Assembly: GCA_963693365.1 (NCBI GenBank)
Contig: CAVNZM010000011.1
Location: forward strand, 6,777,921 to 6,841,920
Source of the DNA: Amoebidium appalachense
Lineage: Eukaryota > Protista > Ichthyosporea
DNA length: 64,000 nt
Reading direction: 5' to 3'
Shown in pieces: positions 3,466 to 59,135 of the stretch. Every line of letters begins with the position of its first letter. Positions within the stretch are counted from its first letter, which is position 1. Under the pieces are notes generated by a model, which worked only from the letters and a program-made list of their open reading frames with translations, searched no databases and was not told the DNA's origin. The translations under genes were made by a program, and so were the position numbers.

Positions 3466-3953
3466 CATACACACAGGCGCCAAACCATGTAGGGGCGGGT
3501 TACTCAAGGACACCATTTTCAAAGCACATAAGCACACAGACACACAGGCGCAGTGCCGAGCCTGGAATAACACCAGCACAAGCAAACACCCACCACCTCG
3601 TGCTCTCCTACAAGCAACAGATCCATCCATACACACGCACTGTCACATACACACCAAACTCACAAAACACACACAACAAGACGTAAATGGTGACTTTATC
3701 TTGGATTCCCCCCCCCCCCCCCCCCCCCCAACACACACACACAGTCCCTTCCTCCCCGCCTCACTGACTTCTGGAAGAGGTGAAAAAGCCACCAATTACG
3801 CACACATGTTCCCCAAACTACGTACAGAACCCCATAATCATCCCACCCTCCTAAGGAATAACTTGTCTTTGCAAGTTATGGGCCCATCACACGAGCCAAC
3901 CATTGAGAGCGCTAACTTGCTCATCACCAGCAAGATCTAGTTCCTCCAGGAAG

Positions 3954-5356
3954 ATGGGCCGCATAGTTCACGGAACGGTCCATGTGACCATCCATGAGGC
4001 CCGAGGGCTCAAGAAACAGGACTACTTTGGCCAAAACGACAATGTCGTGTTTGTGTCTCTGGACAAGGGAAGGGTGTGGCAGACACCTATCAGTGAGGGG
4101 TGCGATCCGCAGTGGAATTCGACTGGAAGCACGATGGTGGGAATGTACGCAGGCGAGGTTAACGTCGAGGTATGATTCCGTCGAACCCCAACTCCCTCCC
4201 CCCCCCCCCCCCCCCCACCACCACCACCACCACCACCACCACCACCTCCCCCCCTACCCACCTCTATGCCCCCCACCTTATGCCAACACACATCAAATCT
4301 GGCAAACACACACAGACACACATACACACACCTTTGGCCGACTGGACATGTGTGTGCCTGGATTCAATCATGTTTCAGTCTGTTATCTGTAGCACAAACA
4401 TATTTGCCCCCCCCCCCCCCCCCCCCCCCCCCTCCCCGCACAGGTATTGTGTTCCGTCCGTCCATTCCCCCTATCCCCCCGCCCCCCTGCCCCCCCACCC
4501 TCTCCCCTTCCTCTCCCGCCACCACCCACCCATTGTAATGAAAACCTTTGATGTGTTTGGAACCACAAGCATGAAGCGATGAATGTGTCGGGAACCAAAC
4601 AATTTGGTGGAGGCGAAAAAGAAAAGGAGAAACGGAACCGGGAGCTCTCTCATCATTGGCTGTGTGCAAGTGTCTCTTTCCTGAACGGTTGTTGTCAATT
4701 CATCTGTTGGGTGATCTTGTCGTCTTTTCTACCTTTCTTCCTTTCCCCCCCCTTTCCTCGCCCTTTTTTTTTGCATGTATCATCCTCCCCCCTCCCCCCC
4801 CCCACCCCCCCCCCCCCCACCCCCCCCCCCCCCCCCCCCCACCATCCCCAACCACTCCCGATCCTCTGTTCCCTTTCCCTACACCAGAAGCATCTGTCCA
4901 CTCGAATAAAAGTACGCATAGACGTGTCAACCTCTTCAGGCCGGCACTAAATGATCTGGCCGGCAGCCGGCAAGCTCTAAACAGCTCTAAACAACTCTGT
5001 TGTGGCTTAAAAACGATAGGAAAAGCTCAGATAAATTGTAAGTATCGACACGTGTATGTCTTGCCTACATACGTTTCTAAGTTGGTTTGGGAAAAATTTC
5101 ATTATATCGTATACTTTTGTATCTGTTTTTGTGTTTCTGAAGTGTCTATCTAGGGAAATTTGCCGGTATGAACAGATTAAGATTAGTGCGGTATTCTCGG
5201 TCATGACACTTATCCATTGGATTCGCTTGTTCAGGTGTACGACATAGACACGGGCCGAGGCAAGGACGAGGTTGGCAAAGTGACATTTCCCATCGACGAC
5301 TTGATGATGGGAACTATAGAGTATGTGTGTGTGTGTGTGTGTGTACGTGTGTGTAC

Positions 5357-5387
<31 letters not shown>

Positions 5388-5441
5388 CGTGTGCGCGCGT
5401 GCGCGCGCGCGTGTGTGTGCGTGTGCGTGTGCGCGCGCACG

Positions 5442-5513
<72 letters not shown>

Positions 5514-6449
5514 CTGCGTGCCTGCATGCTTGCGTGCGTGCGTGCGTGCGTATGTTTGTGTATGTGTGTGTTTTCCCGTGTACGGTGCACGTACCTTTGT
5601 GTGTTCTGTTACTACAAGCTCGATCAAGTTCGCAACCCATATTCGCAACGATGCAACCTATATTTCCATACACTTTACACAAGCACTTCGCACTTTTCAG
5701 ACCCTCTGTTGCCCTTGCCATCCCCCCCTCCCCCCCCCCCCCCCCCCCCAATCCCCCCTCCCCATCCCCCCCCCCCTCCCCCCCCCCCCCCGCCTCCCCC
5801 CCTTCCCACCGGCCCTCTTTCCCCCCTTCCCCCCCCCCCCCCCCCCCCCCCTCCCCCCTCCCCTCACTCCCTTCCCAGCCTTTCCCACCTGTTCTCGAGC
5901 AACTCGCCCTTGTATTACTTGTGCGGTGTTTGCCTTACGGATTCTGTGTCTCTGCTTACTGCCTGGTCTCTGTATCTGCTTTTCTTGACTCAATTTCTGT
6001 TTTTAGATGGCCATCGGCTGCACACAATCCCCCCCCCCCCCCCCCCCCCCTCCCCACACCCTTTCCCTGGCGCCCCTCCCCCCTCCCCCCCCTCCCCCCC
6101 TCTCCGTCCTCCCATCCCCCTGCTCCGAGCCATGCTGCAAAAGTGGGATCATGGAAACCCTTTCTTTTTGTGTAGCATATAAGTACCTACCTCAAGGTTT
6201 CTCTGAATGTGCCTCACTCATCAAGTTTCTTCTGGCTTTTTCCGGTACGAACCTGCATTTCTTTTTTGTTGTTTTTCATCATGGTCTATTGTGCTATCGT
6301 CTTCATGCTCTAATACATCTCCAATCCCCCCCTCCCCCCCTCTCCCTTTCCCTCCCTCTCTCCTGCCCCCTCCCCCCCTCCCCCCCTCCACACACACCTA
6401 CACACCCACACACATGCTCACACGCACACACACACACCCACACTTCCTC

Positions 6450-6481
<32 letters not shown>

Positions 6482-6800
6482 CCACCCACCCACCCACCCA
6501 CCCACCCACCCGCCCACCCACACACACACACAGTGGTTGGTACAAGCTCGATACAGAGGGGGAGATTCGTCTGACGTTGTACTTTGAGCCAGCCAGACCC
6601 GCCCCGTGGGCAGGGGGTAGGAAGGACGTATTTCGAACCCCGAGAGGAGTGTAAAGTGACCCTTTATGGAGATGCCGAGGTGCCAGAGGGTATGTGAATC
6701 CTCCCCCTCCCCCCCCCCCCCCCCCCCCTTCCCCCCCCCTCCGACTCCGACGATAAATGTCCCATCCCCCATCTCCTTCACCGACTATTTTTCTGTTGAA

Positions 6801-6833
<33 letters not shown>

Positions 6834-7245
6834 CCTTTCCCACTGCCCTTGCCTGCATAAGCAACCCTGCTCGTCTCTGATCAAGACGGGTGACCTACCC
6901 ATGTTCAAGTGAAACAGTATCTGAGTTGGGTTTCGTTAACGAGGTGAATAGGTCGAAACTCGGGTACTGTGGATGACGTGGGCCCCCCCTGAGGATGGGC
7001 TCTGCTTGTTATGCATACTCTTTTTGTATGGCTTGCATTCTGCATCGTGTTATCCGTTTGTTCTTGTGTACTTCGTACTTTTTGACGCATTCAAACCCCC
7101 CCCCCCTCCCCCCCCCCCCCCTCCCCCCCCCCTTTCCACCTTACCTCCATCTCCTTCCCCAACTCCTTTAAAGCTAAACCCCCCGCCCCCCCTCCCGACC
7201 CCACCCAATAACCCCTTTCCCGGATTCCTTTTTGGTCAACCCCCC

Positions 7246-7276
<31 letters not shown>

Positions 7277-7882
7277 ACCCACAGACAGACACAGACCTCT
7301 AGACTGACTGTAACTCCTGGTCCTCATCCCTCCCGTCCCCCCTCCCCCCCCCCCCCCCCCAGCCGGCCCTTTTGCTTTTATTCTCATGTCTGCTTAGTAG
7401 CATCCCCCCCGCCCCCCCCAAGCCCCCAAGCCCCCCTACTGTAATTTGGCCGCCACCTGTTCCCTCTTGCAATCTATAACACTCGGAAGCCCATTCTTCG
7501 TCCCCCGGCTCCCTCCCCCCCCTCCCTCCCCTTCCTCCCCAAACACACACACCCCGCCGCCCAGAAAGGAAGCCAACACAAACATACACTCCACAAAAAC
7601 ACTGTTGCTTATTCCCCCATCCCCCCACGCCTCCCCACCACCACCACTCCCTCTTGCCTTCACCCCTGACATCCCTCCAATTACCACCAGTATCATTCCC
7701 CACACTTCCCCACACACAGGCCCATTTTGATAGACACATCAGGCCCCCCACCCGTCCCACACCCTCCCCCTCCCCCACTTCTCCCCTTCACTCCCCATAT
7801 CCCTCCAGATAACCAACCATTCTCATCATCCCCCCCCCTCCCTCCCCTCCCTCCTCCGCCTGCTCGTCCGCCCCACACGCAC

Positions 7883-7946
<64 letters not shown>

Positions 7947-9015
7947 CTCAATCAACGCTCACATCACTCTCGAAGACAACCACACCTACCGTCCCGCAAG
8001 CGCGTGGCGTGACCTCTCCAAAGCCATAAACGGGGCACAACACTTTATCTACATTGCCGGGTGGAGTGTGTACACAGAGATAACTCTCATAAGGGAACCC
8101 GGCCAGCCTACGCTAGGAGAGATGTTGAAGAGGAAGGCGGAGGAAGGGGTGAGGGTGTTGGTGATGCCTTGGGATGAGAAACTTTCGTTTGATGATCAGT
8201 AAGTGTTGACAGCCCCCCTCCCCCCCCTCCCTCCCCCCCCCCCAAAACAAAAGAAAGAAAGAAAAAAAAAAAAAAAAAACCAGCCCCCCCCCCCCCCCCC
8301 CCCCGGCGGCCTGCCCCCCTTTGAAGAACCGTGCACGTCTTTGCCCACGACTGGTTAAACTTGCCTGTTGCAGTTCAAGCATGGGATAGGTTAAGAACCA
8401 CGAGTGCAAGGTTAAAGGAGTCGGATTCCGTTCGTTTGTGAATGCATGTTACCCCCCCCTGAGGGGGGTAACCCTTAAACCTGTATAAGGGTTTCTTGTA
8501 TGCGCATTCCCCCCCCCCCCCCCCCCCCCCCTTCCCCTCCCCTCTTCTCAAGTTTTATATTTGGTCGTTGTATTGTTCTGACGGGTTGTGTTGTTGAATG
8601 TTTCTTCGTCTCCTCCATGGAATTTCAACCCTAAAATACGTACTTCCCCCCCTCCCCCCCCCCCCCCCCTCCCCCCCCCCCTTCCCCATCTTCTTTTTTC
8701 AAGAAGCTATGTTCAAGTGCCTCATCCCTGCATGTTTCTTGATGGTATCATTTTTAGCTTTGTCATGCAAAGGTTGTTTATGTCAGTAAGTTACTTTGCT
8801 TTCTTTTCGCTCCACCCTCTAATACTTCACATTACAGGAGGGTGGGTGAGCTGCTTGGGATGGAGAATGGAATGATGATGACCCATGACGAGGAGACGGA
8901 GGGATACTTCCGGGGAACGGGAGTGCACTGCCACCCGGTAGGGAAAAAACACATGCACATGCATGCATGTGTGTGCATGTGTGTAGACACATAAGTACAC
9001 GTATTCAGGCACATG

Positions 9016-9106
<91 letters not shown>

Positions 9107-10246
9107 CTCGCACCCACCCACCCACACACACACACACACCGAACACACGCGCACCCACACCCACACACACACACTGAACACACGCGCACCCACGCACACC
9201 ACACACACACACATATCCACACATGCACTTATAACGCACTAACCATATATATACGCATCACATGCTCGCATACCCACGTATACAAATGCGGGGCACTAAT
9301 CAGACAAAAGCCTTGTTTAGGTGCCTGCCTGGGAGTGCATACTCATTCAACAATTTGCACCTAAATGATTTAGAAAACAATTGGACTATTATACATTCTA
9401 ACAGCACGTTTTCATTGGTTCAGGTTGGCCGTATAGTGCGTGAGTCAGCCAAGGACAATGTCCGGGCACTTGCATGGGAGGGCATATGCATGCGGTCATA
9501 GGCATGAAAACTTAGTATGCATTCTAACGGCACGTTTTCATTGGTTCAGGTTGTGCGCATAGTGTGTGAGTCAGCCAAGGGCATGGTTGGGGTCTTACAT
9601 GGGAGTGCATACACATGTGGTTAAGCAAATAAACATTTATTATACATTCATCAAGCATGCCAAAATTTAATATACATTCTAATGGTGTGTTTCCATTGGT
9701 TTAGGTTGGCCACATATTGCGCGAATCAGCCAAGGACATTGTCGGGGTACTTGCCTGGGAGTGCATACACGTTCGTGCAATTCACACGTAAGAATTTAAA
9801 AATTATCTGACTATTATACATTCTAATGGCACGATTTCATTGGTGTAGGTTGGCCGTATAGTGCGCGAATCCGCCAAGGACATGGTCGGGGTGCTTGCCT
9901 GGGAGTGCATCTTCACGCACCACCAAAAGACCGTCGTGTTGGATGCCCCATGCCCAAATCGGGACGGGCGGAGGCGCGTGATTGGCTTCATGGGCGGCAT
10001 TGATCTATGCGATGGAAGGTGAGGGAAAATTCTGGTGGTTTCTGTTGTGTGTGCGCTGGGAAAATGTGTGAATGTGGGAATGAAATAGGTTTACATGTAT
10101 GCCTTTTTTACCGCGAAATGAAATGGATGTTATAGATAGTTTTGTTAACAAGGTTTTTTTTTGCGTGGGTGGGCCGGTGGTGGTGGCTGGGCGAGAGGGT
10201 TGGTGTGATGTAGGGGTGGGTGGGTGGGTGGGCTTGGGGTGCGCGC

Positions 10247-10285
<39 letters not shown>

Positions 10286-10654
10286 GGTGAGTGGGTGGGT
10301 GGTGGTGGTGGTGGGGGGAGGGGGGGGGGGGGAGGAAGGGGGGGGGGGGGGGGGGGGAGTAATGTAAATCTGTGGTAAAGTAGGGTGTATGTGTGTGTGT
10401 GTGAGTGTATGTGTGTGCGCGCGCGCGCGCGCGTGCATGCCTGTGCTTGTGCGTGTGTGTGCGTGCGCGCAAGTGTGGGTGAGTCTGTGCGTGCGTGCGT
10501 CTGATTTTTTTTATTTCAGGTGTTTGGGCAGGTTAGAGCACTAAACGTATGAAGTGTTCATCAAAATCTGACATAAATTTGCAGATACGACACCCCCCAG
10601 CACCCCCTCTTCCGCTCTCTCCAGGATGCACATTCTAACGACTTCCATCAGGTA

Positions 10655-10692
<38 letters not shown>

Positions 10693-10905
10693 CCCCCTCC
10701 CCTCTTTCCCCCCCCCTCCCCCCTTTCCCCCCTCCCCCCACAATCCCCTCTCCCCTCTCCCATATGAAACTCGGTACTGTGGATGACTTTGGCCACCCCT
10801 GAGGATGGGCTCTGCTTATTGTACATAGTGTGTGTGCGTTACATACAGTCTGCCTTGTGTTGTTTGTGGTGGATGTGTACCTCGTACTATGTAATCCCCC
10901 CCCCC

Positions 10906-10936
<31 letters not shown>

Positions 10937-12547
10937 ACACACACACCTTATTCCTGAACACACGCAGATGTCCACTAAACCCCTTCCCCCCTACATACAC
11001 ACACACGGACTCACAAGTACACACCCCCACACAAACACACACACACACACGCGCACACACGGGCAGCCGCGCACAAGCAGATACACGCCACATCCACCCA
11101 ACCACCCCCCGATCCCCCTACCCCCCCCCCACACACACACCCCCCTTCCCCCCCCCCTCTCCCCACTCAACCCCTCCCCTCCCCCCCCCCCCCTCCCCCC
11201 CACCACACACACACACCCTCTCCCCCCCCCCCCCCCCCCCCCCCCCCCTCCCCCTCCCCTCCCCCCTCCCCCCCCCCCCCCCTCCATCCCCTTCTCCCTC
11301 CCCGTCCCCCCTCCCCCTCTCGAGTTGGTGCTGCTGTCTGAGTTGGAGAGTCGTATATACGCGGGCTAAGGGGTCGAAACTCAGACGCAATTGATGACTT
11401 GGGCCCTCCCTGAGGATGGGCTCTGCCTATGACGCATACTGTGCGCATGGCTGATGTTGCATACTTGAATGGTTGCATTTGCATGTGTCCTGCACCATGC
11501 TTCTCATCGTGTATGCGTACTTCGTACCGTGTTCCGCATTCAAACCCCCCTTCCCCTCTCCACACACACCCATCCACCCACGTACACGTACACAGGCCAA
11601 CATTGCCGAGGGTGTAGACGTCACCAGTGGCCCTCGTGAGCCGTGGCACGACATCCACTGCAAGGTGGAGGGCATGGTTGCACGTGATCTGATGCAGAAT
11701 TTCCACGAGCGGTGGTCCCGCCAGAACAGCTCCTACGTATAGTGCCCCCCTTTAACACCCTCCCCCCCCCCCCCCCCTCCCGCTTCCGTCCCCCCCCCCC
11801 CCCCCCCCCTCCCCTCTCCCTCTCCCCCCCCCCCCCCCCCCCCCCCGATCCCCTTCCCCCCTTCACCCTATTGCCCCCCATCCGCACCCCCTCCCCTGCC
11901 TCCCCTCCCCATAACACTTGTTGACACCTCCCCGCCTGCCCCTCTTGTGCCTTTAACCTACACATAAATTCCCCCCCCTCTCCCCCCCTCCCCCCTCCCC
12001 CCCCCCCCCCCTCATTCCCTGCCTCCTTCCGTCCCTCCCTCTCTCCGTCCCTCCGTCCCTCCGTCCCTCCCTCCCTCCCATCCTCCGTCCCCCTCCCTCT
12101 CTGCCTCCCTCCATTCCCCTCCCTATATCCTCCCCTCTCCCACTTTCCACACACCCTTTTTTTCCGTGCTCATATGCCATACAGGCAGATGCTTTGTTTG
12201 ACGTCGACCGTTCAGGCTTCATCCGACCGGAGGAGGAGAGGTGGGGGGATGGGTCTGATTCGTGGAATGTGCAGCTGTTAAGGTCCATAGATTCGGAGGT
12301 GGCTAACTTCCAGCACAACGAGGTATGGTCGTCGTCAAGTAGAATGGCCCATACAGAAAGCATACATCCATTACATCTTTGCACCATAAAGCTAAGTGCA
12401 AATCAAGGCTTTCCTAAAATAGAAGCTACTGAAAAGAAAAACACCCAACACTCTCTGCTTATGATGCGTGCTCTTCATGTATGCTCTCCAATCTCCATGG
12501 TGTTCTCCATCAAAGCGTGTTCCTCGTACTTTATATTCTTATAACAC

Positions 12548-12611
<64 letters not shown>

Positions 12612-12645
12612 CAAACACACACACGCACGCACACACGCACGCACG

Positions 12646-12741
<96 letters not shown>

Positions 12742-13437
12742 CTAGTTGAACTGCGTGGGCGTCAAGTAGAGCGGCCCATACAAGACGCATACATCCACCA
12801 CATCTTTGCAAAAACACAGCTTTGCGCAAATAACAACTGAACCCCCCCCCCCCCCCCCCCCCTTCTCCGCCCTCCCCCCCCCCCCCCCCCTGCCCTCCCC
12901 CCCGGCCTTTTCCCCATCCTTCCTCCACTCCTCCCCCCCCCCCCCCTCCCCCCCCCCCCCCTCCCCCCCACACACACACACACATAGGGACTAGTTGAAC
13001 TGCGTGGGCGCCACGTAGAGCGGTCCATACAGGACGCATACATCCACCACATAAGGAGGGCAGAACACTTCCTCTACATCGAAAACCAATACTTCATGGG
13101 CTCATCCTTCGGGTGGGAGAAATCCATCGCTGGGTGCGAAAACATGATCCCCGCCGAAATTGCTCTAAAGGTATCTATCCCCTCTCCCCCTTTCCCTTTT
13201 AACACATACATCCCCCCCCCCCCCCCCCCCCCCCCTTCCTCCCCTTCAAGAAAACGCCCCGTCCCCCCCCCCCCCCCCTCCCCAACACCACCCCCTGCCT
13301 CCCTCCCACCCACAGGGGCCCGCCTGACCACCCTACCGTTATTTATGTATTCTTGTTGTTATTGTAAAGTTGGGGACTGGCACTTGATGGGGTCCTTTTT
13401 GGGTGGGAAAGAACGCGGGGCAACGGCAGCGGCAAAG

Positions 13438-13468
<31 letters not shown>

Positions 13469-14054
13469 ATTATTGCTGTCGGTGTTTTCTCCTCGTGCTC
13501 TAAACACCCCTCGCCCTCCTCGCCTCGCCATCTGTACATGCGCACACGCACACACACCAACCGGCCACACAACCAACAACCACGCAACTGCCCACCCACC
13601 CACACATCCACACAAACATCCACACACACACACACACCCGCACATACTGACACAAACACACATACACACATACCCCCCCCCTCCTCCCCCCCCCCCCCTA
13701 TATATCCCCTCAGATTGCCAGCAAGATTCGTGCCGGTGAGCGTTTTGCCGCCTACATCCTCACCCCCATGCACCCAGAGGGTGCCCCGTCAGCGTATGCA
13801 ACCCCCCCCCCCCCCCCCCCCCTCCCTCCCCCTCACATACACACACATTCTCTCTCTCTCTCTCTCTCCCCCCCCCCCCTTCCCCCCCCCCTCCCTTTCC
13901 CCTCCCTCTGTCATACGCTTTCTCCTTTCTCTCTCAGCTTCTCTGTTCCCCCCCCCCTCCCCCCCTCCCCCCGTCGTTTCGTGTCGTGTTTTTGGTTTGC
14001 CTTTTTTACTTTCAATTTGCTTCTCTTGCCCCATCTCCCAGCAGTGCAGTCTTC

Positions 14055-14089
<35 letters not shown>

Positions 14090-14312
14090 CATTCAAACCC
14101 CCCCTCCCCCCCCCCCTCCCCCCACAAAAAAAAAAAAAAAGAAGGGGAAAAAAAAAAAAAAAAAAAAACTCTCCCCCTGACAATGGCCGAATCATCTATG
14201 GTCTGGTTCATTTATGTTTTACCGGTTTTCTCCGTCATTTCTTTCGGAAAGCCACACACTCTGATGCTAAACTCAGAACTCTCCCCCCCCCCCCCTCTCC
14301 CCCTCCCCCCCT

Positions 14313-14404
<92 letters not shown>

Positions 14405-14531
14405 TCCCCACACACACACACCCCACCCCCTCCCACGCCACGATGCACATTGATGCACACGGGCGCGCAAAACACTGAAACCCACACCAATGGATATATA
14501 TGCAGCACACACCATTCACACCCAACACACA

Positions 14532-14629
<98 letters not shown>

Positions 14630-15579
14630 CATACACACACACACACGTACAGAAAACCCACACAAGAGCTACTCCAGTGGCAGTATCGCACAATGCAGTT
14701 CATGTACAATATCGTCTCAGAGGCTCTCAGGTAACTGCCCCCCCCCCCCTCTCCCCCGGCCCCAACCCACCCTCCCCCCTCCCCTTCTGTCTGCCCCCGC
14801 CGCTGTCCCTGCTCCCCCCACCCCCACCCCCCTGCCCGCCGCCAACCTCACCACCTTCCATCTTCCTCCGTGGATGCCAAACAAACAGACTCCTGGGGTT
14901 GAAACTTGTTTGACTGCTGACTGAATGAACAATGCTCTGCATGAAAATGTAGAACAGGCATTTGAAGCAGTCATCAACCCCTCCCCCCCCCCCCCCCCCT
15001 CCCCTCCCCTTTCCCCCTCCCCCCCCCCCCCCCCCCCCCCCATCCACCCACCCCCCTCCCTCCCCCCCCCCCCCCCCCCCCCACCCCCCCCCTCCCTCCA
15101 AAAAAAAAATGGGAGGGAACGAGAGAAAGAAAAGCAAAGGAAAGAAACCACACACAAACACACAAACGCGCACGTACACATCATCTCTTCAAACACACAA
15201 TACAGGCGCACATGCTTTCATGTGTGTGTTGCCCACAGCTCCAAACCAGCTACCACCATCACCCCATTCATAAACTGACTTTACCCCCTGCGCCCCCCCC
15301 CCCCCCCCCCCTCCCCCCCTCCTTTTTTTCATACACTGACTTTACCCCCTGCGCCCCCCCCCCCCCCCCCCCCCCTCTCTCCCCTCCGGCCCCCCCCTCC
15401 CCCCTCCCCCCTCTTTCTCCCCGCCCTCCTTCCTCCACCTTTCCCTTCCACATGTCCCCCCCCCCCCCCCCCCCCCCCCCCCCTTTTCAGCCCTCTCCCT
15501 ACTACTTTCTACCCACCCCTTTCCCTCCCTCTCCCCCCCCCCCTCCCCCCTGCGCCCCCCCCCCCCCCCCCCTCCCTCC

Positions 15580-15612
<33 letters not shown>

Positions 15613-15715
15613 AAGAGAAAAACTTTCAGCCACTACACCCCTAACCCCCCCCCCCCTTTCCCCGGTTTCCCAATGCCCCCTGTCCCCACCCTCCGCTTTT
15701 CCCTTCCCTTCCCTT

Positions 15716-15762
<47 letters not shown>

Positions 15763-15967
15763 ACCCAACCAACCACCCACGCACACGCCATCTCCCATAC
15801 AAACACACACACACACGTACGGAGTCGTGGGCTCGGACGACCACCCCACAGACTGGCTGACTTTCACCCCTCCCCCCTCACTTCCGCCCCTGCAATAAAA
15901 AAGAAACTCCTCCCACCTCTTTCCCCATCCCACTTCCCCAATACCCCCCCCCCCCCCCCCCCTCCCC

Positions 15968-16010
<43 letters not shown>

Positions 16011-16482
16011 ACAGAGACGTGGGCTCGGACGACCACCCCACAGACTGGCTGGCTTTCTTCTGCCTGGGCAACCGCGAGACTGCCTACGGGGGGCAGGAGT
16101 CAAATGCACCCAGTGAACTTGCTGGAACCCTCCAGAGAACACGACGCCACATGATCTATGTCCACTCAAAGATGTTGATCGTCGATGATGAGTACGTGTA
16201 CACCCCCCCCCCCCCCCCCCCCCCCCCCTCCCCCCCCCCCCCTCCCCCCCCCCCCCCCCCCCCCCCCCACACACACACACGCGCGCACGCGCACAATTCA
16301 CTCTACCCCCTTTCCTCCGAATGATGGACTCTGTTCAAGTAAATTCTGTCCGCACTTTAAAGTCTCATCTTTTTTGTTGTTTTCTTTGTAATTCTCCCGT
16401 GTTTTTGCTTCCGCAATAGCCACCCTTCATTGAATGTACCCCTTCCCCTCCCGCCTAATCTCATCACCAACACACACACATC

Positions 16483-16513
<31 letters not shown>

Positions 16514-16614
16514 CCACACCCACACCCACACACATAAGCACACGCGCACACGCACACGCACACGCGAACGCACACGCGAACGCGCACAGGCACACGAACC
16601 ACACACACACACAT

Positions 16615-16655
<41 letters not shown>

Positions 16656-16829
16656 CGCACACACGCATAAACACACCCTTCTCCCCCCTCCCCCCCCCCT
16701 CTCCCTCTCCCCCCCCCCCCCCCCCCCCCTCCCCTGCGCCTTCTTCCCTCCCTCTTCCCCCCCCCTCCCCACACACACACATGTATCCCCCTCCCTCCCT
16801 CCTACCCTCCACACACACACATTCACACG

Positions 16830-16894
<65 letters not shown>

Positions 16895-18001
16895 ACACAC
16901 AGGCTCATCATTGTAGGGTCAGCCAACATCAACCAGCGTTCCATGGCCGGCTACCGAGACACAGAGATAGCAACGTCCTCCTGGCAGCCCGCACACACAG
17001 CCACCCGCCACACAACCCCAAAGGGAAATGTCTATGGTTTCCGGGCACGTTTGTGGGCAGAGCACCTTGGTATTGTTCCTTCTTCCCCTTCTCCCCCTCC
17101 CCCCCCCCCTCCCCCGGGCATGGTTGCTCTGTGTCGTGCATCTGTAAGCATATACGCATTTTTCGCTGCACTGCATTAGTTTGCACACATATCTTCACCG
17201 TTTTGCTCACCTTGCTTGCATAAGCAACCCTGCTCGTCTTTGACCAAGACGGGTTGACCTTCCCAAGTTCAGTTGATGCTGCTGTCTGAGTTGGAGAGTC
17301 GTATATACGCGGGCTAAGGGGTCGAAACTCAGACGCAATTGATGACTTGGGCCCTCCCTGAGGATGGGCTCTGCTTATGACGCATACTGTGCGCATGGCT
17401 GATGTTGCATACTTGAATGTTTGCCTTTGCATGTGTCCTTCGTGTATGCGTACTTCGTACCGTGTTCCGCATTCAAACACACCCCGCCCCCCCCCCCCAA
17501 CCCCCTCTCTTGCCCTCGTCCTCCCCCCCCCCCCCTCCCTCCCCCCCCCCCTCCCCCCCCCAAATACCCCATACCTCATACCCCTCCCTGCCCCCCTTTT
17601 TTGTGTCTTTTACACTGTAAGGCTTTGAAAGATACAAATGGAGACGACTATATCATGTATGAGTGGAAGGGTTTCTCTGCTAGTGGGAAGGAGAGAGTAA
17701 CGATACTTGGTCTTAATGTGTTATCCCCCCCCCCCCCCCCTCCCCCCTCCCGCCCCACACACACACCCCCTCCCCGCCCATCCCCGCTTCTTCCCTTTAG
17801 TAACTACTAAACAGTTTTCCAACAATTCTACCCAACGAATAAATTCCAATTTATAATCCATGTAAGGTCCAGTTTTCTGTATTTTTAGGACTTCAATTTT
17901 TCTTATAGATTGTCACAATCCTATAGTAAGAGAGGGGGAGAGAGAGAGAGAGAGAGAGAGAGAGTGAGTGAGAGAGAGAGAGAGAGAGTGTGTGTGTGTG
18001 G

Positions 18002-18054
<53 letters not shown>

Positions 18055-18360
18055 AAAACTTACAAATGGGCCTAGCCCCCCCCCCCCCCCCCCCCCTCCC
18101 CCCCCCCCCCCCCCTCCCCCTGTCCCTCCCCACACCCTCCCCTATGGATAGGCTTTACCTATGATACGTATTCTTTGTGTATGCTTTGCCGAATGTGCAT
18201 TGCGGTGTCTGTCCTTCATAGTTGTGTGCTTCGTATCCTGTCGCACATACCCCCCCCCCCCCCCCCCCCTCTCTCCCTCCCTTCCCCCCCCCCCCCCCCA
18301 TCACCCCCCTCTTTCCCCCACCTCTTCTCCCACTTTTGCCTCTTCACAGCCTGTCATTTA

Positions 18361-18396
<36 letters not shown>

Positions 18397-18497
18397 CCCC
18401 GTACCTTTGCCTTCTTCTCTGAAGTGGCTCTTTCACCTCCTCCCCCCCTTGCCTTGTACCTACTATACCATTAATTGACTCTCCTCCATCCCCCCCA

Positions 18498-18528
<31 letters not shown>

Positions 18529-18891
18529 ACCTCCCTTCCCCTTCCCCTCCCTCCCTCCCCTCCCGCTTCCGCCCTCCCCCGCCCCTACACCTGCCCCCTC
18601 CTTCGGGCCCACCTCCCCATTCCTTCCCCCATCCCCTCCTCCTCCCCGTCCCCCCTCCCCCCTTCCTCCCTCCTTCTCTGCCCCCCTCCCCTCCTCCCCC
18701 CCCCCCCCCCCCCCCTCCTCTATTCAGGCCACTATGACAGTACCTACGACACCCCCTCCTCCCTCGAGTGTATCCGTCAGGTCAACGAAACTGCCCGTGC
18801 AGCCTGGCAGCAATATCTGGCCACAGAGCCCACAGACATGCACACACACCTCATGCCTTACCCCGTGGCCGTGCACCGCGATGGAACGTAC

Positions 18892-18932
<41 letters not shown>

Positions 18933-19087
18933 CGCCCCCTTCCCCTCCCCTCCCTTCTCCGCCCAGCCCCTGCGTCCTCCTGAATCTCCTTTCCAAACTT
19001 CCTACGCTCTCTTATGCTACCGTCCCTCTCTTTCCCCACTGCCTCCCACCCTCCCCCCCCCCCCCCCCCCCCCATCCCTCCCTCCTC

Positions 19088-19120
<33 letters not shown>

Positions 19121-19208
19121 ACGGTATAGCTGCAGAACACACTGACATGCACACACACGTCCCATATCCCGTAGTGGTGCATCATAGTATCACCATCGTT
19201 TTTTTCTT

Positions 19209-19243
<35 letters not shown>

Positions 19244-21542
19244 AAGGCAGCGCTGTTATCTAGATCTCCATATCCGAGCAACCAATCACGGCATCCACAC
19301 AAGCATATACAATAAACTCGATACCAGCACATATCCTAAACTCGCTATCGTTCGCTCTCCCTTTATCGATTCATTCATTTCTGACACCGCTAAATATGGT
19401 ATCATAACTAGTCAACTATGTAGCCATCACCGTAAGTGCTCCTCATTGCATGCTCTCTCCATTCACGCAGCTACCCTAATATCTAGACTACTAGCTAAGG
19501 GATATATCTACAATAAACTCATTCATAAAACCATATCATACATTAGAAACAATCCATCGATGTATTGCGGCACTCATTATTCGTCTATTCTCAAATCCAT
19601 CATTCGAAGAATTCGCACACCAATATAGTCTTACTCACACACACGATGTCAATATCATATGTGTGACACACACACATATATATAGACTACACTCCGTGCA
19701 TAATGGGTCTCGACATATGGCGTTTCACTTGTAGTGATACAACTTGGCTACCGTTTTGGCTTCCTAAAGCCCATGGGCACGAGGCGAATGCTGGCTGGCC
19801 GCCAGGGGCTTACCCACCCGTTCGAACACGTTAAAGTTCCACCCGGTCAGGTGCACTGCCCCCCAGTGGCATGGATCAAACCTATTGGTTTATTACGTTG
19901 GGTAACTCTCTAATAAAGCAATAGTTGCCAGGTTAAATTCCCCCCCTGTTTTCTCTGCCTCCATATCCCCCCCCCCCCCCCTCCCCCTTCCCCCCCCCCC
20001 CCCCCCTCTTCCCCCTTCCCCCCGCCCCCTTCCCCCTCTCTCTCCCCCCCTCCCCTCCCTCTCTCCCCTGCCCCCCTCCCCCCCCCCCCCCCCCCCCCCC
20101 CCTCCCTCCCCTTTTCTATAGGTTAGGGAGTCGGGGAGCTTTGTAGAAGCCCGGCTTATGCTCTATCTCTCTGCTTGCTTTCTTTGTTTTTTTGTCTGCT
20201 TGCAGATTTTGTAGACTCTGCGTTCTTAGATTGCTGCTCCTTGAACAACCCTGCTCGTCTTTGGCCAAGACGGGTGGACTCGCTTATTGCTGTTGAAACA
20301 AAGTATGGGTTGGGAACCACGCGCGAGAGGTTAAAGAGTCTGAACCCATGCTTTTGTGGAGGCATAGGAACCCCCCTGATGATGGGCTCTGTTCAAGTGT
20401 CTTCTGCCTGCACGCTTAAATTGTTTGTTTTTGGATTTCCCACCATTGTGACGCTTTGTTGTTGCTCTTTGTTGTCTCCTCCATATTTCCAACCCTCTAA
20501 CGCATACATCACCCCCCCCTCCCCCCCCCCCCCCCCCCCCCCCCCCCTTCTGCCCCCACTCCCCTGCCTCCTCTTCCCTTCCCGCCTCCCCTTAAACTAC
20601 CACCTCTTTCATTTGGGCACGGGACCACCTTTTTCAGTGATTAGAAACGAACTAAAACCCTAATACCACTCCAGTGTTTGTCTTCATATCTGATCAATGT
20701 TTTGTCTTCATATCTGATCAATGTTTTGTATACAATACCTGATCAATGTTTTGTCTTCATATCTGATCAATATTTGTATACAATATCTGATTAATGTTTT
20801 GTCTTCATATCTGATCAATGTTTTGTCTTCATATCTGATCAATGTTTTGTATACAATATCTGATCAATGTTTTGTCTTCATATCTGATCAATGTTTTGTA
20901 TACAATATCTGATCAATGTTTTGTCTTCATATCTGATCAATATTTGTATACAATATCTGATCAATGTTTTGTCTTCATATCTGATCAATGGTTTGTATAC
21001 AATATCTGATCAATGTTTTGTCTTCATATCTGATCAATGTTTTGTATACAATATCTGATCAATGTTTTGTCTTCATATCTGATCAATGTTTTGTATACAA
21101 TATCTGATCAATGTTTTGTCTTCATATCTGATCAATGTTTTGTCTTCATATCTGATCAATGTTTTGTCTTCATATCTGATCAATGTTTTGTATACAATAT
21201 CTGATCAATGTTTTGTCTTCATATCTGATCAATGTTTTGTATACAATATCTGATCAATGTTTTGTCTTCATATCTGATCAATGTTTTGTATACAATATCT
21301 GATCAATGTTTTGTCTTCATATCTGATCAATGTTTTGTCTTTATATCTGATCAATGTTTTGTCTTCATATCTGATAATGTTTTGTCTTTATGTCTGATCA
21401 ATGTTTTGTCTTCATATCTGATCAATGTTTTGTATACAGGTTGGGTGTGTTGGATGGTGTTCGCAATTTCCCGGACTATCCCGGTGAATGTCCTATTGAG
21501 GGCGCCGCAGAACTACTGCTACCGAATTTCCTCACATTCTAA
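3954..21542 (+). CDS. PLD: Plant-type C2-domain phospholipase D (PLD alpha/delta-like), 16 exons, about 757 aa after correcting one +1 frameshift in exon 3
   Basis: Exons, all GT-AG and phase-consistent: 3954-4169, 5235-5320, 6534-6689, 7946-8198, 8838-8937, 9849-10018, 10585-10651, 11596-11736, 12185-12322, 12988-13170, 13714-13793, 14653-14730, 16015-16191, 16903-17069, 18728-18887, 21440-21542. Motifs: N-terminal C2 ([14 protein letters not shown]...DPQWN), [18 protein letters not shown]1 [11 protein letters not shown]...[41 protein letters not shown]2 [13 protein letters not shown]...[17 protein letters not shown]-terminal FPD...LPNFLTF*. Confidence 0.95.
6847..7095 (+). mobile_element. 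Structured non-coding poly(C)-anchored element, family B, in PLD intron 3
   Basis: Carries the shared core gcataagcaaccctgctcgtc...aagacgggtgac...cctgaggatgggctctgctt and ends cgcattcaaa + poly(C). Related 5'-truncated copies lie at 10766-10895, 45969-46124 and ~59225-59314. Confidence 0.75.
8320..8645 (+). mobile_element. Degenerate family C element, interrupted by a poly(C) run
   Basis: ttgaagaaccgtgcacgtctttg...aaccacgagtgcaaggttaaaggagtc...cccctgagg matches the core of 20240-20390. tctcctccat...caaccctaaaatacgtac + poly(C) matches its 3' end. Confidence 0.55.
9315..9912 (+). repeat. Tandem duplications (126-155 bp spacing) of the 3' splice site plus 5' part of PLD exon 6
   Basis: The unit tacattctaa(c/t)ggcacgttttcattggttcAG|GTTGGCCGTATAGTGCGCGAATCAGCCAAGGAC...GGGAGTGCAT recurs with exon-like starts at 9424, 9550, 9705 and 9849, plus a partial copy at ~9320. 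Only 9849 continues into the HKD1 motif. Confidence 0.9.
10766..10895 (+). mobile_element. 5'-truncated family B element
   Basis: gaaactcggtactgtggatgactttggccacccctgaggatgggctctgctt...gtacctcgtactatgtaat + poly(C); collinear with 6955-7095. Confidence 0.7.
11323..11544 (+). mobile_element. 5'-truncated family A element
   Basis: Near-identical to 43385-43607; ends gttccgcattcaaa + C run; preceded by a C-rich tract. Confidence 0.85.
17114..17477 (+). mobile_element. Family A element, 5'-truncated with a small internal deletion, in PLD intron 14
   Basis: Near-identical to 43228-43607; C-rich tracts on both sides. Confidence 0.85.
19242..19939 (+). mobile_element. 5'-truncated Penelope-like retroelement: C-terminal RT/thumb coding fragment (19242-19628) plus 3' non-coding region, inserted in poly(C) in PLD intron 15
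   Basis: The frame reads ...[90 protein letters not shown]...RTPI*. This matches the PLE RT C-terminal pattern (F/Y)LDL.I...T..Y.K...YG...SQL.R..R.CS...L...GY. It stops right after the thumb with no downstream GIY-YIG. The segment is AT-rich, starts directly after a C run and ends ggttaaatt + C run. Confidence 0.8.
20122..20509 (+). mobile_element. Structured non-coding poly(C)-anchored element, family C
   Basis: Core cttgaacaaccctgctcgtctttggccaagacgggtggac...cccctgatgatgggctctgttcaag; ends aacgcatacatca + poly(C). A second 5'-truncated copy lies at 46133-46270. The 5' boundary is approximate. Confidence 0.75.
20676..21439 (+). repeat. Minisatellite of about 31 units of two variants (24-bp atctgatcaatgttttgtcttcat and 25-bp atctgatcaatgttttgtatacaat); the last unit supplies the acceptor of PLD exon 16
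   Basis: Directly visible tandem array. The terminal unit reads ...ctgatcaatgttttgtatacAG|GTTGGGT. Confidence 0.95.
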
Positions 21543-26013: not shown

Positions 26014-26869
26014 CGCATGCCTCGCACCCCCCACTGGTGCCCAAATGCAGCAGCCGCCCTCAGGGGACGGTCAGCGCTGCGGTGGCCGCGGGCCTGCACC
26101 GGGCACAGCACGCAGATGAACACGTGTTTCGAGTGCATGCAGACAAACAGCGCTGCGCTGATTGCCGCCGGCTGCGACCACCTCAAGTGCCCTGCGGCCA
26201 TGGCAGCCACGTGTCCGGACTGCCCCCGCCCCGGCGCAAACGACAGCTGCCGTGCTCTGTGTGAGGCAAACCGCAACAGCACGGAATGCAGCGCCTGCCG
26301 CAGCAAGTGCCGCGCCTGCATCGACCAGAACACAGACGCCCTCATTGCTGCGGGCTGCAAGGCCCTTGTTTGCGCAAAAGTCATCAACACCACCTGCCCC
26401 GACTGTGCCTCCACCGATGCATGCCGCACTGCCTGCGACTTGAACCGCACCAGCAGCGAGTGCACACAGTGCGGCAACAAGGGTACCGGCTGCACCAAGT
26501 GTCTCACCGCAAACAACGCCACGTTAGCTGATGCAGGCTGCCCCCAGCCCCAAGGCCTCAAGGGGAGTGGACTCCAACCGAGATGGTCATATGGGACAGG
26601 GTGGTATGGGCAATAATATGGGTGATGCTATGGAACAGGGTAATATAGGTGGTATGGGTGGTATGGGCAATAATATGGGTGATGCTATGGAACAGGGTAA
26701 TATAGGTGGTATGGGTGGTATGGGCAATAATATGGGTGATGCTATGGAACATGGTAATATAGGTGGTATGGGTGGTATGGGCCCGCACGGTGGTATGGGT
26801 GGTATGGGACAGGGTGTTATGGGCAGTAATATGGGTGGTGACATGCAGGGCCAAAATGGGCCGCAGTAA
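26014..26869 (+). CDS. Cys-rich repeat protein (3 x CxxC-x3-N-x3-L-x2-AGC modules) with a C-terminal Gly/Met-rich 19-aa repeat; frameshifted as assembled, 5' exon not identified
   Basis: ORF 26008-26616 holds CFECMQTNSAALIAAGC / CRACIDQNTDALIAAGC / CTKCLTANNATLADAGC, TCPDC twice and several N-x-S/T sequons. ORF 26531-26869 holds 3 x 57-nt repeats (MGNNMGDAMEQGNIGGMGG). The two join if one base is removed at a C or G run at 26540-26566. Candidate acceptor gtgcag at 26008-26013. Confidence 0.65.
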
Positions 26870-29719: not shown

Positions 29720-31938
29720 TGGTCTGGACGTCACTTGGAGGGTGATCGGTAACGAAACCTTTAAATTTGACAAGCTTAGATCTAAGAGCCTGCATGCATG
29801 CTGCATCATCATCGTCCTGTTCATGTTCTGAATGTTCAAACCCTGGTTCAAAAACGAGTCAGACCGCGCCAGCCGCCAACTTACACCAAGCGACGTTGAA
29901 CCCGGCGATTGCAATCTCAAAGTGAGTGCTATCCTTTCGCTCTGTTATAGTGACTTTGTCTTTTTTCTGTTTGCGTTACGGTATGCATAAGGATCTGACG
30001 ATGTGTCTGAATATGGCAGGTGAGCTACCATAAAAAGAAGACACTTTTCTGGTTGGTTCAATGAGGATCTTTAGTGTACCAATCGTGTGACGTAGATATA
30101 CATCGAGTCACCCCAGACACGGAAGCCCCCCAGATCATTAAACATCACGATGTAAATGGGGCTTCCGGGACCTGGCGTCCTCAGTCTTTTCCTTGTCCAA
30201 AACATATTTCTTGTCAACGAAAGCTGTGACCATCCGTCCCCCATCCGACTTTCATCCGTGTTCAAATTCATGTTCCCATCACATTTCAATGTCGCAATTG
30301 CAAGAAAGTAATCTGATTGGCGCATACTGCATCTGAGCTTTTGTTGACTCAAGGAGGGGCCACTGCGGCTCCAAAACTTCCTTGTGAGCCTCGGGATATG
30401 TATGCAAAGCAGATTTTCGATACTTTTTTATGCCCATCAATAAACATTGTTCCATTTTCAGTTGCAGCAGTCAAAAATAAAGCAGGGGTGGGGATATCTG
30501 GGGGATTTTATATATGCTTGTGGAGTCCAAACTTAGGTAGCGAGCTAATTTATGTACAGGCTGCGGTGCTACGAGGGTGCAACCCAGTCACGGGTCGAAT
30601 TCCAGACTGGCACAGCCCGGCCCTCTGTGCCGTGACAGATCGATATCGGATGCATTTGGAAGGTCTCACGCATACGCACATTACAGCCTACATATGTACA
30701 TTACTGTTTTTTCACAGCACTGGCACGCACGGATGCCAGTTATTGCCACATTTCCTAAAATTCCGATAATCTGGATCATACGGTTCAAGAGACGTACACG
30801 GTGCTGTACACCTTACTACGGCGGCTTGTCTTCTCTTGTTTGACGAATCCGACATGGTAATTTCAAAGCCCGGAAGGTCAAAATCGACTTTTGTCTGATT
30901 GGTTGAATTGTGATGCTGCATTAGCCAATGAAAATGGGGCAACCCCTTCACCCCACGCAAACAAACAAACAGACATGTTGCAAAGTAAAAACATAATGAT
31001 AACGACAGAGCTCAAACCCTGCAGCTGCAGGAATTCCCGGCAAATCACAATGTGCACGTACACTGTGACTACTGGTTTACCTGCGTAAATGGCAACCAAC
31101 ATCATGAATTAATATACGTGTATGTTATTGTTTTTTTGTACACGTATTGTTTTCGAAGCATTTCGGACCAGCTGCATGCTGCGCTGTGCTTCATGACTCA
31201 TGAGCCTATTATGGCCTTTGATTTTGTGCACTGAGATCTTCACCGGGCAAGCATCTGCTACAACTGGCTTGTACCGTGACGTACATACACACGGTTGCAG
31301 ACTTGCACTGCGCCAGCGGTTGTTAAAGGATATACACTACGTGCACCTCGAGCTCGTCTTAATATACAACTTCAATAGCGTATACATATGTTTGTGTATT
31401 AAAGGTCCTATACCGAGTGACTACTACTATGAATGCTTGCACGTATACATAGTGCAAAATGGCCGAAATTTAACCTCCGAATTCAAACCTGAACCATATG
31501 GCCAGTGCCTATTTTTTTTTTGTTTATGTACGTGAAGCCACTGTGGCTGTGCAGGGCCACCCTCCGGTGGGCTCCCGGAGGAAATCTATAAATGAATCCA
31601 CACAAAAGTTTAAAACGACGTGCCAACAGCTTGAAGTCCGTCAGTTTTTGCTTTACGTCAGCTAAGCAACAATCTAATTAGCAACGGTTGATCAGACTTA
31701 CATTATTATCCTAAGGTAGCTACAGATATCGATACACCCAGACCTCCACTTGAGGCCTCGGGAGTCAGGAGGCTCAATAGGGATTCGCGGGCTCATGATA
31801 GTGTCCTTGTAACTAATGATCAATCAGCTCCAGCAGGAAGTATCACTGACGAATGCACCTGTAAATATTTTGAAAAAGAAAGAAAAAGAAAAAACCTTTT
31901 GGTGACGTGTACGTGCATATACTGAAGCAAATTTAAGA

Positions 31939-36270
<4,332 letters not shown>

Positions 36271-36712: not shown

Positions 36713-37087
36713 ACTGTAACATTCCCGACCCCCGCCTTTCATTATTAACATTTAACCTTATAGCCTCCCGAATCAGAAAGGACAATCTTTACGGTTACAT
36801 TGAATAGACCGTCATCTTTGTACCAAGGCAATGAATCACTGTAACATTCCCAATCCCCGCCTTTCATTATTAATATTTAACCTTATCATCTCCCGAATCA
36901 GAAAGGACAATCTTTACGGTTACATTGAATAGACCGTCGTCTTTGTACCAAGGCAATGAATCACTGTAACATTCCCAATCCCCGCCTTTCATTATTAATA
37001 TTTAACCTTATAGCCTCCCGAATCAGAAAGGACAATCTTTACGGTTACATTGAATAGACCTGGTCTTTGTACCAAGGCAATGAATCA
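36713..37087. repeat. Three near-identical tandem copies of a 125-bp unit downstream of the SLC1 gene
   Basis: actgtaacattccc...ccaaggcaatgaatc starts at 36713, 36838 and 36963. Confidence 0.95.
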
Positions 37088-40580: not shown

Positions 40581-46577
<5,997 letters not shown>

Positions 46578-46852
46578 TTTGCCAAACTTTTTTTCTCCCC
46601 GAATTTTCAAAGGCGGGAGAGAGGGGGGTTTCAAACTTGTGCATGGTGAACACATGGGGGGGATGTATAAAGATATCTCACTGTTAGTGAGTGCGCGGCT
46701 GTGCGATGTGTCCTGAAGAATAAAGTTTAAGTTCTTTGTTGGTATGCCGTGTGATCATGCATGCAGTGTTTTGGCAAGTGTCTGCGTCGTGACTGTGTCG
46801 CACACGCACGAATGCACGGACACACGGACCTGCTGAAGCTTTCGCACACACA

Positions 46853-47222: not shown

Positions 47223-47816
47223 GGGTCCTCCCTGAGGATGGGCTCTGCTTATGACGCATACTGTGCACATGGCTGATGTTGCATACTTATATGTTTGCCT
47301 TTGCATATGTCACTGCACCATGCTTCTCGTCGTGTATGCGTACTTCGTACCGTGTTCCGCATTCAAACCCCCCCAGTCTTCTTTCAGAGGTGTCCTTTCA
47401 GGACAGACCACTGTGTGGAGACCGCTGTACTTCCATGCAACCGGGCATGGTTGATGTGTCGTGCATCTGTAAGCACATACGCATTTTTCGCTGCACTGCA
47501 TTAGTTGGCACACACATCTTCACCGTTTTGCTCACCTTGCTTGCATAAGCAACCCTGCTCGTCTTTGATCAAGACGGGTTGACCCGCCCAAGTTCAGTTG
47601 ATGCTGCTGTTTGAGTTGGAGCGTCGTATATACGCGGGCTAAGGGGTCGAAACTCAGACGCAATTGATGACTTGGGTCCTCCCTGAGGATGGGCTCTGTT
47701 ATGACGCATACTGTGCACATGGCTGATGTTGCATACTTATATGTTTGCCTTTGCATATGTCCTGCACCATGCTTCTCGTCGTGTATGCGTACTTCGTACC
47801 GTGTTCCGCATTCAAA
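47223..47816 (+). mobile_element. Family A element as a head-to-tail 1.3-mer
   Basis: cctgaggatggg at 47231 and 47682. Includes the same junction segment (C7-agtcttctttcagaggtgtcctttcaggacagaccactgtgtggagac) as 43608-43662. Ends cattcaaa + poly(C). Confidence 0.9.
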
Positions 47817-47821
47817 CCCCC

Positions 47822-47860
<39 letters not shown>

Positions 47861-48701: not shown

Positions 48702-48819
48702 GCGTCCATCTGAACTGTGTTTCGTGTGCAGTGCTGCAAACAAACAAAGCCGTGGGGTCTAACGTCCAACACGCTTCTTTTCTCTTTCAACAACTACAGC
48801 AACATCACATTTCGCAAAA

Positions 48820-58557: not shown

Positions 58558-59135
58558 GTTGGTAAATGATTTTTTTTTATTTTTTATTTTCCTCCCTTTT
58601 TTCCCCCTTTTTTTGGAGGGGCAAGGCGGAGGGTGTGGAGGGGAGGGGGGGGGGGGGGGGGGGGGGGGGGGTTCTTGGTTTGCATATGCTTGCAAATTGT
58701 TGTGTATGTGCTTTTGGATTGCTGGTTGGTAAACGACTCCTCTCGAGTTTAGCTAAAGCTGTTGCCGTTTCAAACTTGAAGCAACCGGATTCTTCGCAAG
58801 AGTTTCGAGAGTCCAAGCCTGGGGGGTTGCGGGGGCATAGAAATCCTTTGGATGATGGGCTCCGTTTTAGTAGTCGTGCTCTCTTTGCTCGATCGTTTCG
58901 TTTCCTGTTTTGCGTTTTCAGTTTTGTGGTGTTTGCACGTCTTTGCCGCTAGGCTTGACATCTCTCAATCCCCCCCCCCCCCCCCCCCCCCCCTGGGCCC
59001 TCCCTGAAAATGGGCTCTGCTTATGACGCATACTGTGCGCATGGCTGATGTTGCATACTTGAATATTTGCCTTTGCATGTGTCCTGCACCATGCTTCTCA
59101 TCGTGTATGCGTACTTCGTACCGTGTTCCGCATTC

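Follow-up and report, generated by a model that had tools for sequence, protein, structure and literature searches.

A candidate hammerhead ribozyme with a split, non-circular core in poly-C-ending repeats of Amoebidium appalachense

The window analysed here, a stretch of 64,000 nucleotides from the ichthyosporean Amoebidium appalachense (GCA_963693365.1, contig CAVNZM010000011.1, positions 6,777,921 to 6,841,920 of the forward strand), is intron-rich eukaryotic DNA in which (C)n and (CA)n tracts are abundant. Its plus strand carries exons of three host genes: a C2-domain phospholipase D (3855-19260), a dicarboxylate symporter (31906-35512) and a Tim17-family protein (43000-46580). Comparison of the window with itself yields three families of non-coding repeats, A (most copies), B and C, plus a single copy D; copies end at runs of C and the majority are truncated at the 5' end. 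All copies of the RNA motif that these repeats encode lie on the strand of the host genes, and a 12-mer at the 3' end, GANGAUGGGCUC, occurs 13 times, always on the plus strand, against a mean of 0.86 in shuffled sequence (13 was reached in none of 100 shuffles). A first-pass annotation had described one RNA junction common to four families, with CUGANGA and without GAAA, as a possible new ribozyme or recognition fold. Our analysis suggests that the motif of families A-C is likely a variant of the hammerhead ribozyme with a non-circular, split core order, for which cleavage is predicted.

Family A includes a tandem of a 453-bp unit present 1.9 times (43202..44067), 5' of a Tim17-family exon and on the same strand; its units are identical at all 406 bases compared and contain two intact motifs (43333-43493 and 43786-43946, with predicted cuts at 43406/7 and 43859/60). 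Another copy with an intact core lies between phospholipase D exons (17114..17485), a partial tandem consists of a 5'-truncated copy and a full unit (47223..47830), and a further 5'-truncated copy (11322..11545) is without the 5' strand of stem II. The family B motif (6856..7010; predicted cut 6927/8) has an intact core, and in the family C motif (20240..20397) G12 and A13 are altered, changes private to this copy. Copy E (8320-8479), which the first-pass annotation overlooked, is a decayed C-like copy in a phospholipase D intron that keeps GUU and GAGUC and has altered core bases. Copy D (58731-58867) has the 3' 12-mer in common with the others and is missing the catalytic core.

By sequence, families A-C have everything required of a hammerhead: CUGANGA, GAAA, the pairs G10.1-C11.1 and A15.1-U16.1, a GUU triplet (in six of six full copies examined) and stems I, II and III. 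C3-U4-G5-A6-N7-G8-A9 adjoins stem I in A, B and C and not in copy D; G12-A13-A14-A15.1 lies between stems II and III directly in A and B and, through sequencing reads, in C, and is found neither in copy D nor in the window copy of C. The parts run from the 5' strand of stem II through the cleavage block (S) and the GAAA block (G) to the 3' strand of stem I with CUGANGA, which comes last; a closing helix and a hairpin bridge it to the 5' strand of stem II at the start, and stems I and II cross stem III, forming two pseudoknots. The motif is not a hammerhead of type I, II or III, whose block orders are CGS, GSC and SCG, its own order being split-C, S, G. The predicted cut, placed by analogy with hammerheads, follows a GUU that sits at the tip loop's base. 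The first-pass annotation had overlooked the stem I and stem II pseudoknots, the GUU triplet, the kink-turn-like (k-turn-like) motif and the palindromic loops described below.

In family C the closing helix comprises P0 (20240-47 with 20390-97, 8/8 paired) and P0b (20249-51 with 20384-86, 3/3 paired), and encloses hairpin H1 (20253..20275), whose loop contains a 6-nt palindrome, UGGCCA in C and UGAUCA in A and B; the tip hairpins are palindromic as well. The 5' strand of stem II (10.1-10.5, 20277..20281) stands apart from CUGANGA and pairs with 20336-20340, which ends in C11.1. The k-turn region (20283..20297) begins with the 5' strand of the return helix, which is the C helix of the k-turn (20283-91), and a 3-nt bulge (20292-94); its G.A, A.G and A.G pairs have their opposite strand at 20358-60. 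The 5' strand of stem III, or NC helix (20298..20311), ends in U16.1 (20310) and U17 (20311). Beyond the predicted cut (20311/20312), the tip loop (20312..20340) holds the 5' strand of stem I (20312-14), a small hairpin and the 3' strand of stem II. G12 to A15.1 occupy 20341..20344 (UGAA in the window copy); 20344..20375 contains the 3' strands of stem III, of the non-bulged side of the k-turn, of the return helix and of stem I (20373-75); and 20376..20389 holds the core CUGAUGA (C3-A9), an extra U, the GGG of P0b and a conserved CUC.

The corresponding parts of the first family A motif are P0 (43333-40/43486-93), P0b (43342-44/43480-82), H1 (43346-68), stem II (43370-74/43433-37), the return helix (43376-85/43457-65), the 3-nt bulge with its tandem G.A pairs (43386-90/43455-56), stem III closing at A15.1-U16.1 (43441/43405), GUU (43404-06), stem I (43407-10/43468-71), GAAA (43438-41) and CUGAGGA (43472-78). 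In all three families stem III reaches the k-turn-like motif after 16 layers despite diverged sequence, and a C helix, a 3-nt bulge and tandem G.A and A.G pairs are present in sequence, as in standard k-turns such as Kt-7 and box C/D (PMC4316175; here and below, cited papers stand for those parts of their texts and supplements that were available), a match that is one of sequence only. The third k-turn pair is A.G in B and C and U.U in A.

The statement that GAAA is lacking does not hold for families A and B, which read GUC-GAAA-C (GAAA at 43438-41 and 6955-58); the conserved GUC of the first-pass annotation is the 3' strand of stem II. The window copy of family C reads UGAA. Public contigs were aligned over 20115-20510 and depth was counted from assembled contigs: 20341 T>G and 20342 G>A together account for ~99% of contig depth in four of four runs and give GAAA, the depth for 20341 T>G being 92,999/93,904 in run X1, 14,492/14,801 in X4, 1,092/1,096 in X11 and 11.5/11.5 in X13. 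X11 (guessed to be RNA) and X13 come from other studies; the window DNA itself may derive from X1 and X4. A single X13 contig (record 17) spans 20232-20419 with five differences and has the letters GAAA. Because ~99% of the depth reads GAAA, the window copy of family C is taken to be a mutant. A further change, 20284 T>C (~99% in X1 and X4), converts a wobble pair of the return helix to a Watson-Crick pair.

Compensatory change supports the helices of this arrangement. In A and C every position of the closing helix is paired (8/8), three of them showing two-sided changes, and B pairs at 5/5 inner positions; the long arm, remodelled between families, is paired at 12/13, 13/13 and 13/13 positions in A, B and C. 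Both features had been recognised in the first-pass annotation, and the conserved elements that it named (ACCC, the CUCGUC..GACGGG hairpin followed by GAC, GUC, and CUGA-N-GAUGGGCUC) are all in place. Stem II has 5/5 Watson-Crick pairs in each family with two-sided changes at 2/5 positions; two-sided changes also occur in three of the first eight pairs of stem III and at one of four positions of stem I. Because a MAFFT alignment puts family C one base out of register in stem II, pairs were counted by coordinates. A descriptor of the split arrangement, which serves as a chance control only, since it was written from these same sequences, finds six copies on the plus strand, none on the minus strand, none in 60 shuffles of the window, and none in 3000 shuffles upstream of A or in 3000 upstream of B. 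Among family A contigs, ten sites within the motif vary by at least 3% in at least one run, and none is a core base; six of the ten are unconstrained bases (p ~0.02), and of the other four, two carry the letters of family B, one changes C-G to a wobble and one lies in a terminal pair. The strand of the functional RNA, earlier read from wobble pairs, is fixed by the core motif instead. The earlier view that the junction is under structural selection stands, and self-cleavage is likely, to judge from the sequence; the motif may also bind the reverse transcriptase, the other role put forward earlier.

Non-circular hammerheads have been described by Eckert et al. 2023 (PMC10085705), who report that they cut in vitro and assume that block C tolerates no insertion longer than 1-2 nt. 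The motif resembles their types SGC and CSG (HRIMA-1) in its cyclic order S-G-C, its two pseudoknots, its short link between stems I and II and a helix that connects the outer sides of these stems; families A-C have the arrangement of type SGC, in which S precedes G, G precedes CUGANGA, and a helix connects stems I and II. In contrast to the published types (PMC10085705), A9 and G10.1 are separated here by the ends of the molecule, the closing helix and the hairpin, and the joining helix runs on into stem III by way of the k-turn. The molecule is seen as opened between A9 and G10.1 because the covarying stem II strand sits at the 5' end; a four-way junction of the closing helix (P0b/P0) and H1 likely holds these two bases together. 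Whereas the published types come from metatranscriptomes and metagenomes, with a known organism only for one weak GCS case (PMC10085705), the motif of the window is a high-copy genomic repeat of a eukaryote. Among the literature covered, which included few subscription papers, non-circular hammerheads appear only in Eckert et al. 2023 and papers citing it, and neither a link of such hammerheads to Naiad/Chlamys elements nor a split C block was found; the literature covered included PMC13725137, PMC10162972 and the main text of bioRxiv 10.64898/2026.07.22.740005.

The repeats also resemble retrozymes without long terminal repeats (non-LTR) and the minimal hammerheads of Penelope-like elements (PLEs), which form tandem units that are non-coding, 150-450 bp long and equipped with a single hammerhead (PMC7229834, PMC4209133); the family A unit is non-coding, has one motif and, at 453 bp, stands at the upper edge of that range. 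Non-LTR retrozymes are further marked by expression as both linear and circular monomers. PLE hammerheads have an extra base between 9 and 10.1, as is the case here, are frequently dimeric and show low activity in vitro (PMC4209133), and some hammerheads of these systems cut as dimers (PMC7229834, PMC4209133). They are, however, type I ribozymes that dimerise through a short stem III, whereas the present motif is non-circular and has a long one. The association with PLEs that carry an N-terminal endonuclease, already proposed in the first-pass annotation, holds up. Partial tandems, 5' truncation and microsatellite targets, which characterise insertions of Naiad/Chlamys PLEs (with (C)n reported for Chlamys; PMC8557442), are all seen among the window copies. 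Unlike Naiad/Chlamys PLEs, whose open reading frame encodes an N-terminal GIY-YIG, a CxC motif and a reverse transcriptase with IFD, the window elements carry no such frame, to judge from 150 of 256 candidate frames.

Craig et al. 2021 (PMC8557442) describe Naiads as being without canonical hammerheads and, in the available text, note only 'core' and 'half core' flags. Their consensus file was searched with ten NNCGAAAC words and the contexts were read by eye among the places displayed, some being hidden by line breaks. By eye, at least 14 of the 54 listed Naiad consensus sequences contain non-circular hammerheads, seven of type CSG and seven split. The CSG cases are Naiad-2_Nbra and Naiad-3_Nbra (names confirmed) and Ppac, Parc, 1_Nbra, Hpol and Smim (names from file order); the split cases, also named from file order, are Bfor, Amil, Aacu, Anas, Plae, Obim and Ovul, and include three near-identical coral Naiads (Amil, Aacu, Anas). 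In all seven split cases the motif is at the 3' end. Bfor, the corals and Plae have a closing helix and a hairpin 5' of G10.1, and Bfor and the corals have UG-CUC..GGG-U in common with families A-C; Obim and Ovul have the split order and a k-turn-like bulge, their closing helix not being confidently placed. The arm is 5-7 or 12 bp long in the Naiad examples vs 16 layers in the window families. No such motif was seen at the Chlamys consensus places displayed, and an exact search of the available supplement with the 3' motif of the window gave no relevant match. As a separate observation, nematode and spider Naiads (PMC8557442 File S5) end, by eye, in clean hammerheads of type CSG, so far known from two metagenomic sequences.

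We consider it likely that families A-C are poly-C-ending non-coding repeats whose split hammerhead core cuts itself after GUU and which serve as templates for a reverse transcriptase of the Naiad/Chlamys type. A tandem transcript would be cut after GUU into unit-length RNA templates, and the 453-nt unit set free would then close into a circle, to be copied into G/C tracts with the start at its internal C-run; the copying enzyme would probably be a Naiad/Chlamys-type Penelope-like reverse transcriptase, its partnership with the repeats being deduced. This scheme of cutting, circularisation and copying is modelled on retrozymes and PLEs (PMC7229834, PMC4209133, PMC6765202). Of eight truncated copies that were mapped, none has its start at the predicted cut, and several extend across it; the truncation starts, together with the identical tandem units, fit a circular or uncut template.

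The 16-layer arm may be too long to fold back within one copy, in which case two tandem copies would swap arms and be cut together. In a rod model that uses the 50 degree k-turn angle from PMC4316175, the gap between the return helix and stem II of a single copy is 25-53 Å, vs a reach of ~14 Å for the 1-nt linker. With the shorter arm of Naiad-like dimensions the gap is 3-28 Å, and a swapped dimer with two-fold symmetry forms a closed parallelogram. A dimer would be consistent with the palindromes of H1 and of the tip hairpins, which are not universal among the Naiad examples. Cofolded dimers lie 11-14 kcal/mol below two monomers, a difference that is not counted, as any hairpin with a palindromic loop would show it. 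We propose arm-swapping dimer cleavage that leaves the single-copy product uncut only tentatively, with rather less than even confidence. More doubtful again is the broader proposal that the motif represents a seventh natural hammerhead topology, in which a four-way junction splits the CUGANGA block, and that this ribozyme was overlooked in a large part of Naiad/Chlamys; here an additional helical turn, together with the k-turn, would turn it into an arm-swapping dimer that cuts only tandem transcripts.

Several observations weigh against cleavage by a split core or against parts of the proposed scheme. Stem I is short (3-4 bp, the lower figure applying to B and C); C3>U at 20376 makes up 45% of the X11 depth with no matching change of G8 among those listed; and copy D keeps helices without a core. 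Covariation was counted by program on three families of one genome, and the Naiad cases were judged by eye. Folding energy is weak support for the motif: z-scores on the plus strand range from -2.6 to -0.2, and the minus strand of the motif at 43333 scores lower (-3.3). The dimer step depends on a crude rod model, the H1 palindrome is broken in the family A copy at 17219, and palindromic H1 loops are missing, by eye, from the coral and Plae Naiads. The intact family A tandem sits in sense orientation in a likely intron, where cutting may harm the host transcript. Finally, a scan of 256 candidate frames, limited to the 150 most complex, turned up neither a reverse transcriptase nor a GIY-YIG domain.

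A fold that derives from the hammerhead and no longer cuts, serving as a signal for reverse transcriptase binding, dimerisation or priming, would be in keeping with the helices of copy D, which are without core bases, with the shortness of stem I, with GUU, a less usual hammerhead triplet, and with the apparently strained geometry of the monomer. Weak activity of PLE hammerheads in vitro (PMC4209133) points the same way. Against it, the catalytic bases are all kept in three diverged families and none is among the variable family A sites, a retention that is hard to explain without catalysis; we regard loss of cleavage as unlikely.

The motif might otherwise be a known SGC hammerhead with block C intact, GGCUC two bases past A9 forming stem II and the 5' GACNN acting as an off-switch. 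This pairing is possible with a UG insert, so that the stem II strand would start 1-2 nt past CUGANGA; GGCUC pairs with the 3' strand of stem II at 5/5, 4/5 and 5/5 positions in A, B and C, a point against the split core, and the pairing would account for the invariant CUC. Two-sided changes number none for GGCUC vs two for the covarying 5' strand. The duplex with GGCUC has energies of -5.6, -2.3 and -7.1 vs -8.5, -7.0 and -6.4 kcal/mol for the 5' strand (A, B, C), and is stronger only in C. The canonical tandem hammerheads of a metagenomic locus (L093) have this G.U at position 2 as well, their sequence being CUGAGGA-U-GGCC..GGUC-GAAA. An intact block C also requires P0b to be broken and leaves B at 4/5 pairs, and in the seven split-type Naiads the bases past A9 form at most two pairs by eye, too few for a stem II. 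We give the intact arrangement little credence, and the motif likely differs from it.

That the motif belongs to a new class of ribozyme with no relation to the hammerhead, having CUGANGA and no GAAA, is very improbable: the window copy of C and copy D do lack GAAA, and Rfam gives no match (at the gathering score across the window, or at E<=10 on 43202-44060 in the A tandem), a silence to be expected because its nested models are not suited to a non-circular order, whereas the A, B and C families read GAAA and place stems I-III in the register of a hammerhead, whose core is complete and in non-circular split order.

The junction described as common to four families is confirmed for A-C and not for copy D, in which CUGA, GAAA and an NUH triplet are all missing. 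A covariance model of A-C finds copy E (E ~1e-4) and does not find copy D at E<=1. By eye, copy D has a 10-nt palindrome and helices that resemble stem I, stem II and the return helix; it may be a relative that was remodelled or has decayed to a dead state. A twister-like reading of copy D, made by eye, was dropped, Rfam giving only two weak, irrelevant matches; readings as SAM-I, HDV-like, hairpin, pistol or box C/D RNA were likewise set aside, since the parts stand in another order.

Neither the viral nor the metagenomic contigs scanned yielded a convincing relative. In viral contigs, 40 loci with a short motif look like chance coding matches, none of 59 loci with a gapped motif has stems III and I, and the family-specific hairpin has no match; in metagenomes, none of 64 loci matches the covariance model and two (L093, L095) are canonical tandem hammerheads. 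These two (L093 on the minus strand at ~1310-1860) have ~72-bp tandem units with minimal hammerheads and a U between A9 and G10.1. The sole descriptor match among 163 loci, on the minus strand of L088 at ~540-600, may be due to chance.

Elsewhere in the window, tandem repeats occur at 9298-9918 (~126-130 bp), 36713-37087 (125 bp x3), 20677-21438 (a 24/49-bp satellite rich in TGATCA) and 26599-26782 (57 bp x3). An intronless frame of 277 codons (48763-49593) has a signal-peptide-like start, is rich in cysteine and has no Pfam match. The symporter exon has 13 matches among homologs at 34-42% identity, a bacterial-level distance that resolves no lineage.

If the split hammerhead is real, non-circular RNA permutation would extend from anonymous environmental RNAs to abundant retroelements of eukaryotes, and the published assumption of an uninterruptible CUGANGA block would fall. 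The cut site and the mutants that should disable it are predicted to the single base. Naiads, reported to be without such ribozymes, carry a look-alike layout, as judged by eye in the consensus sequences displayed.

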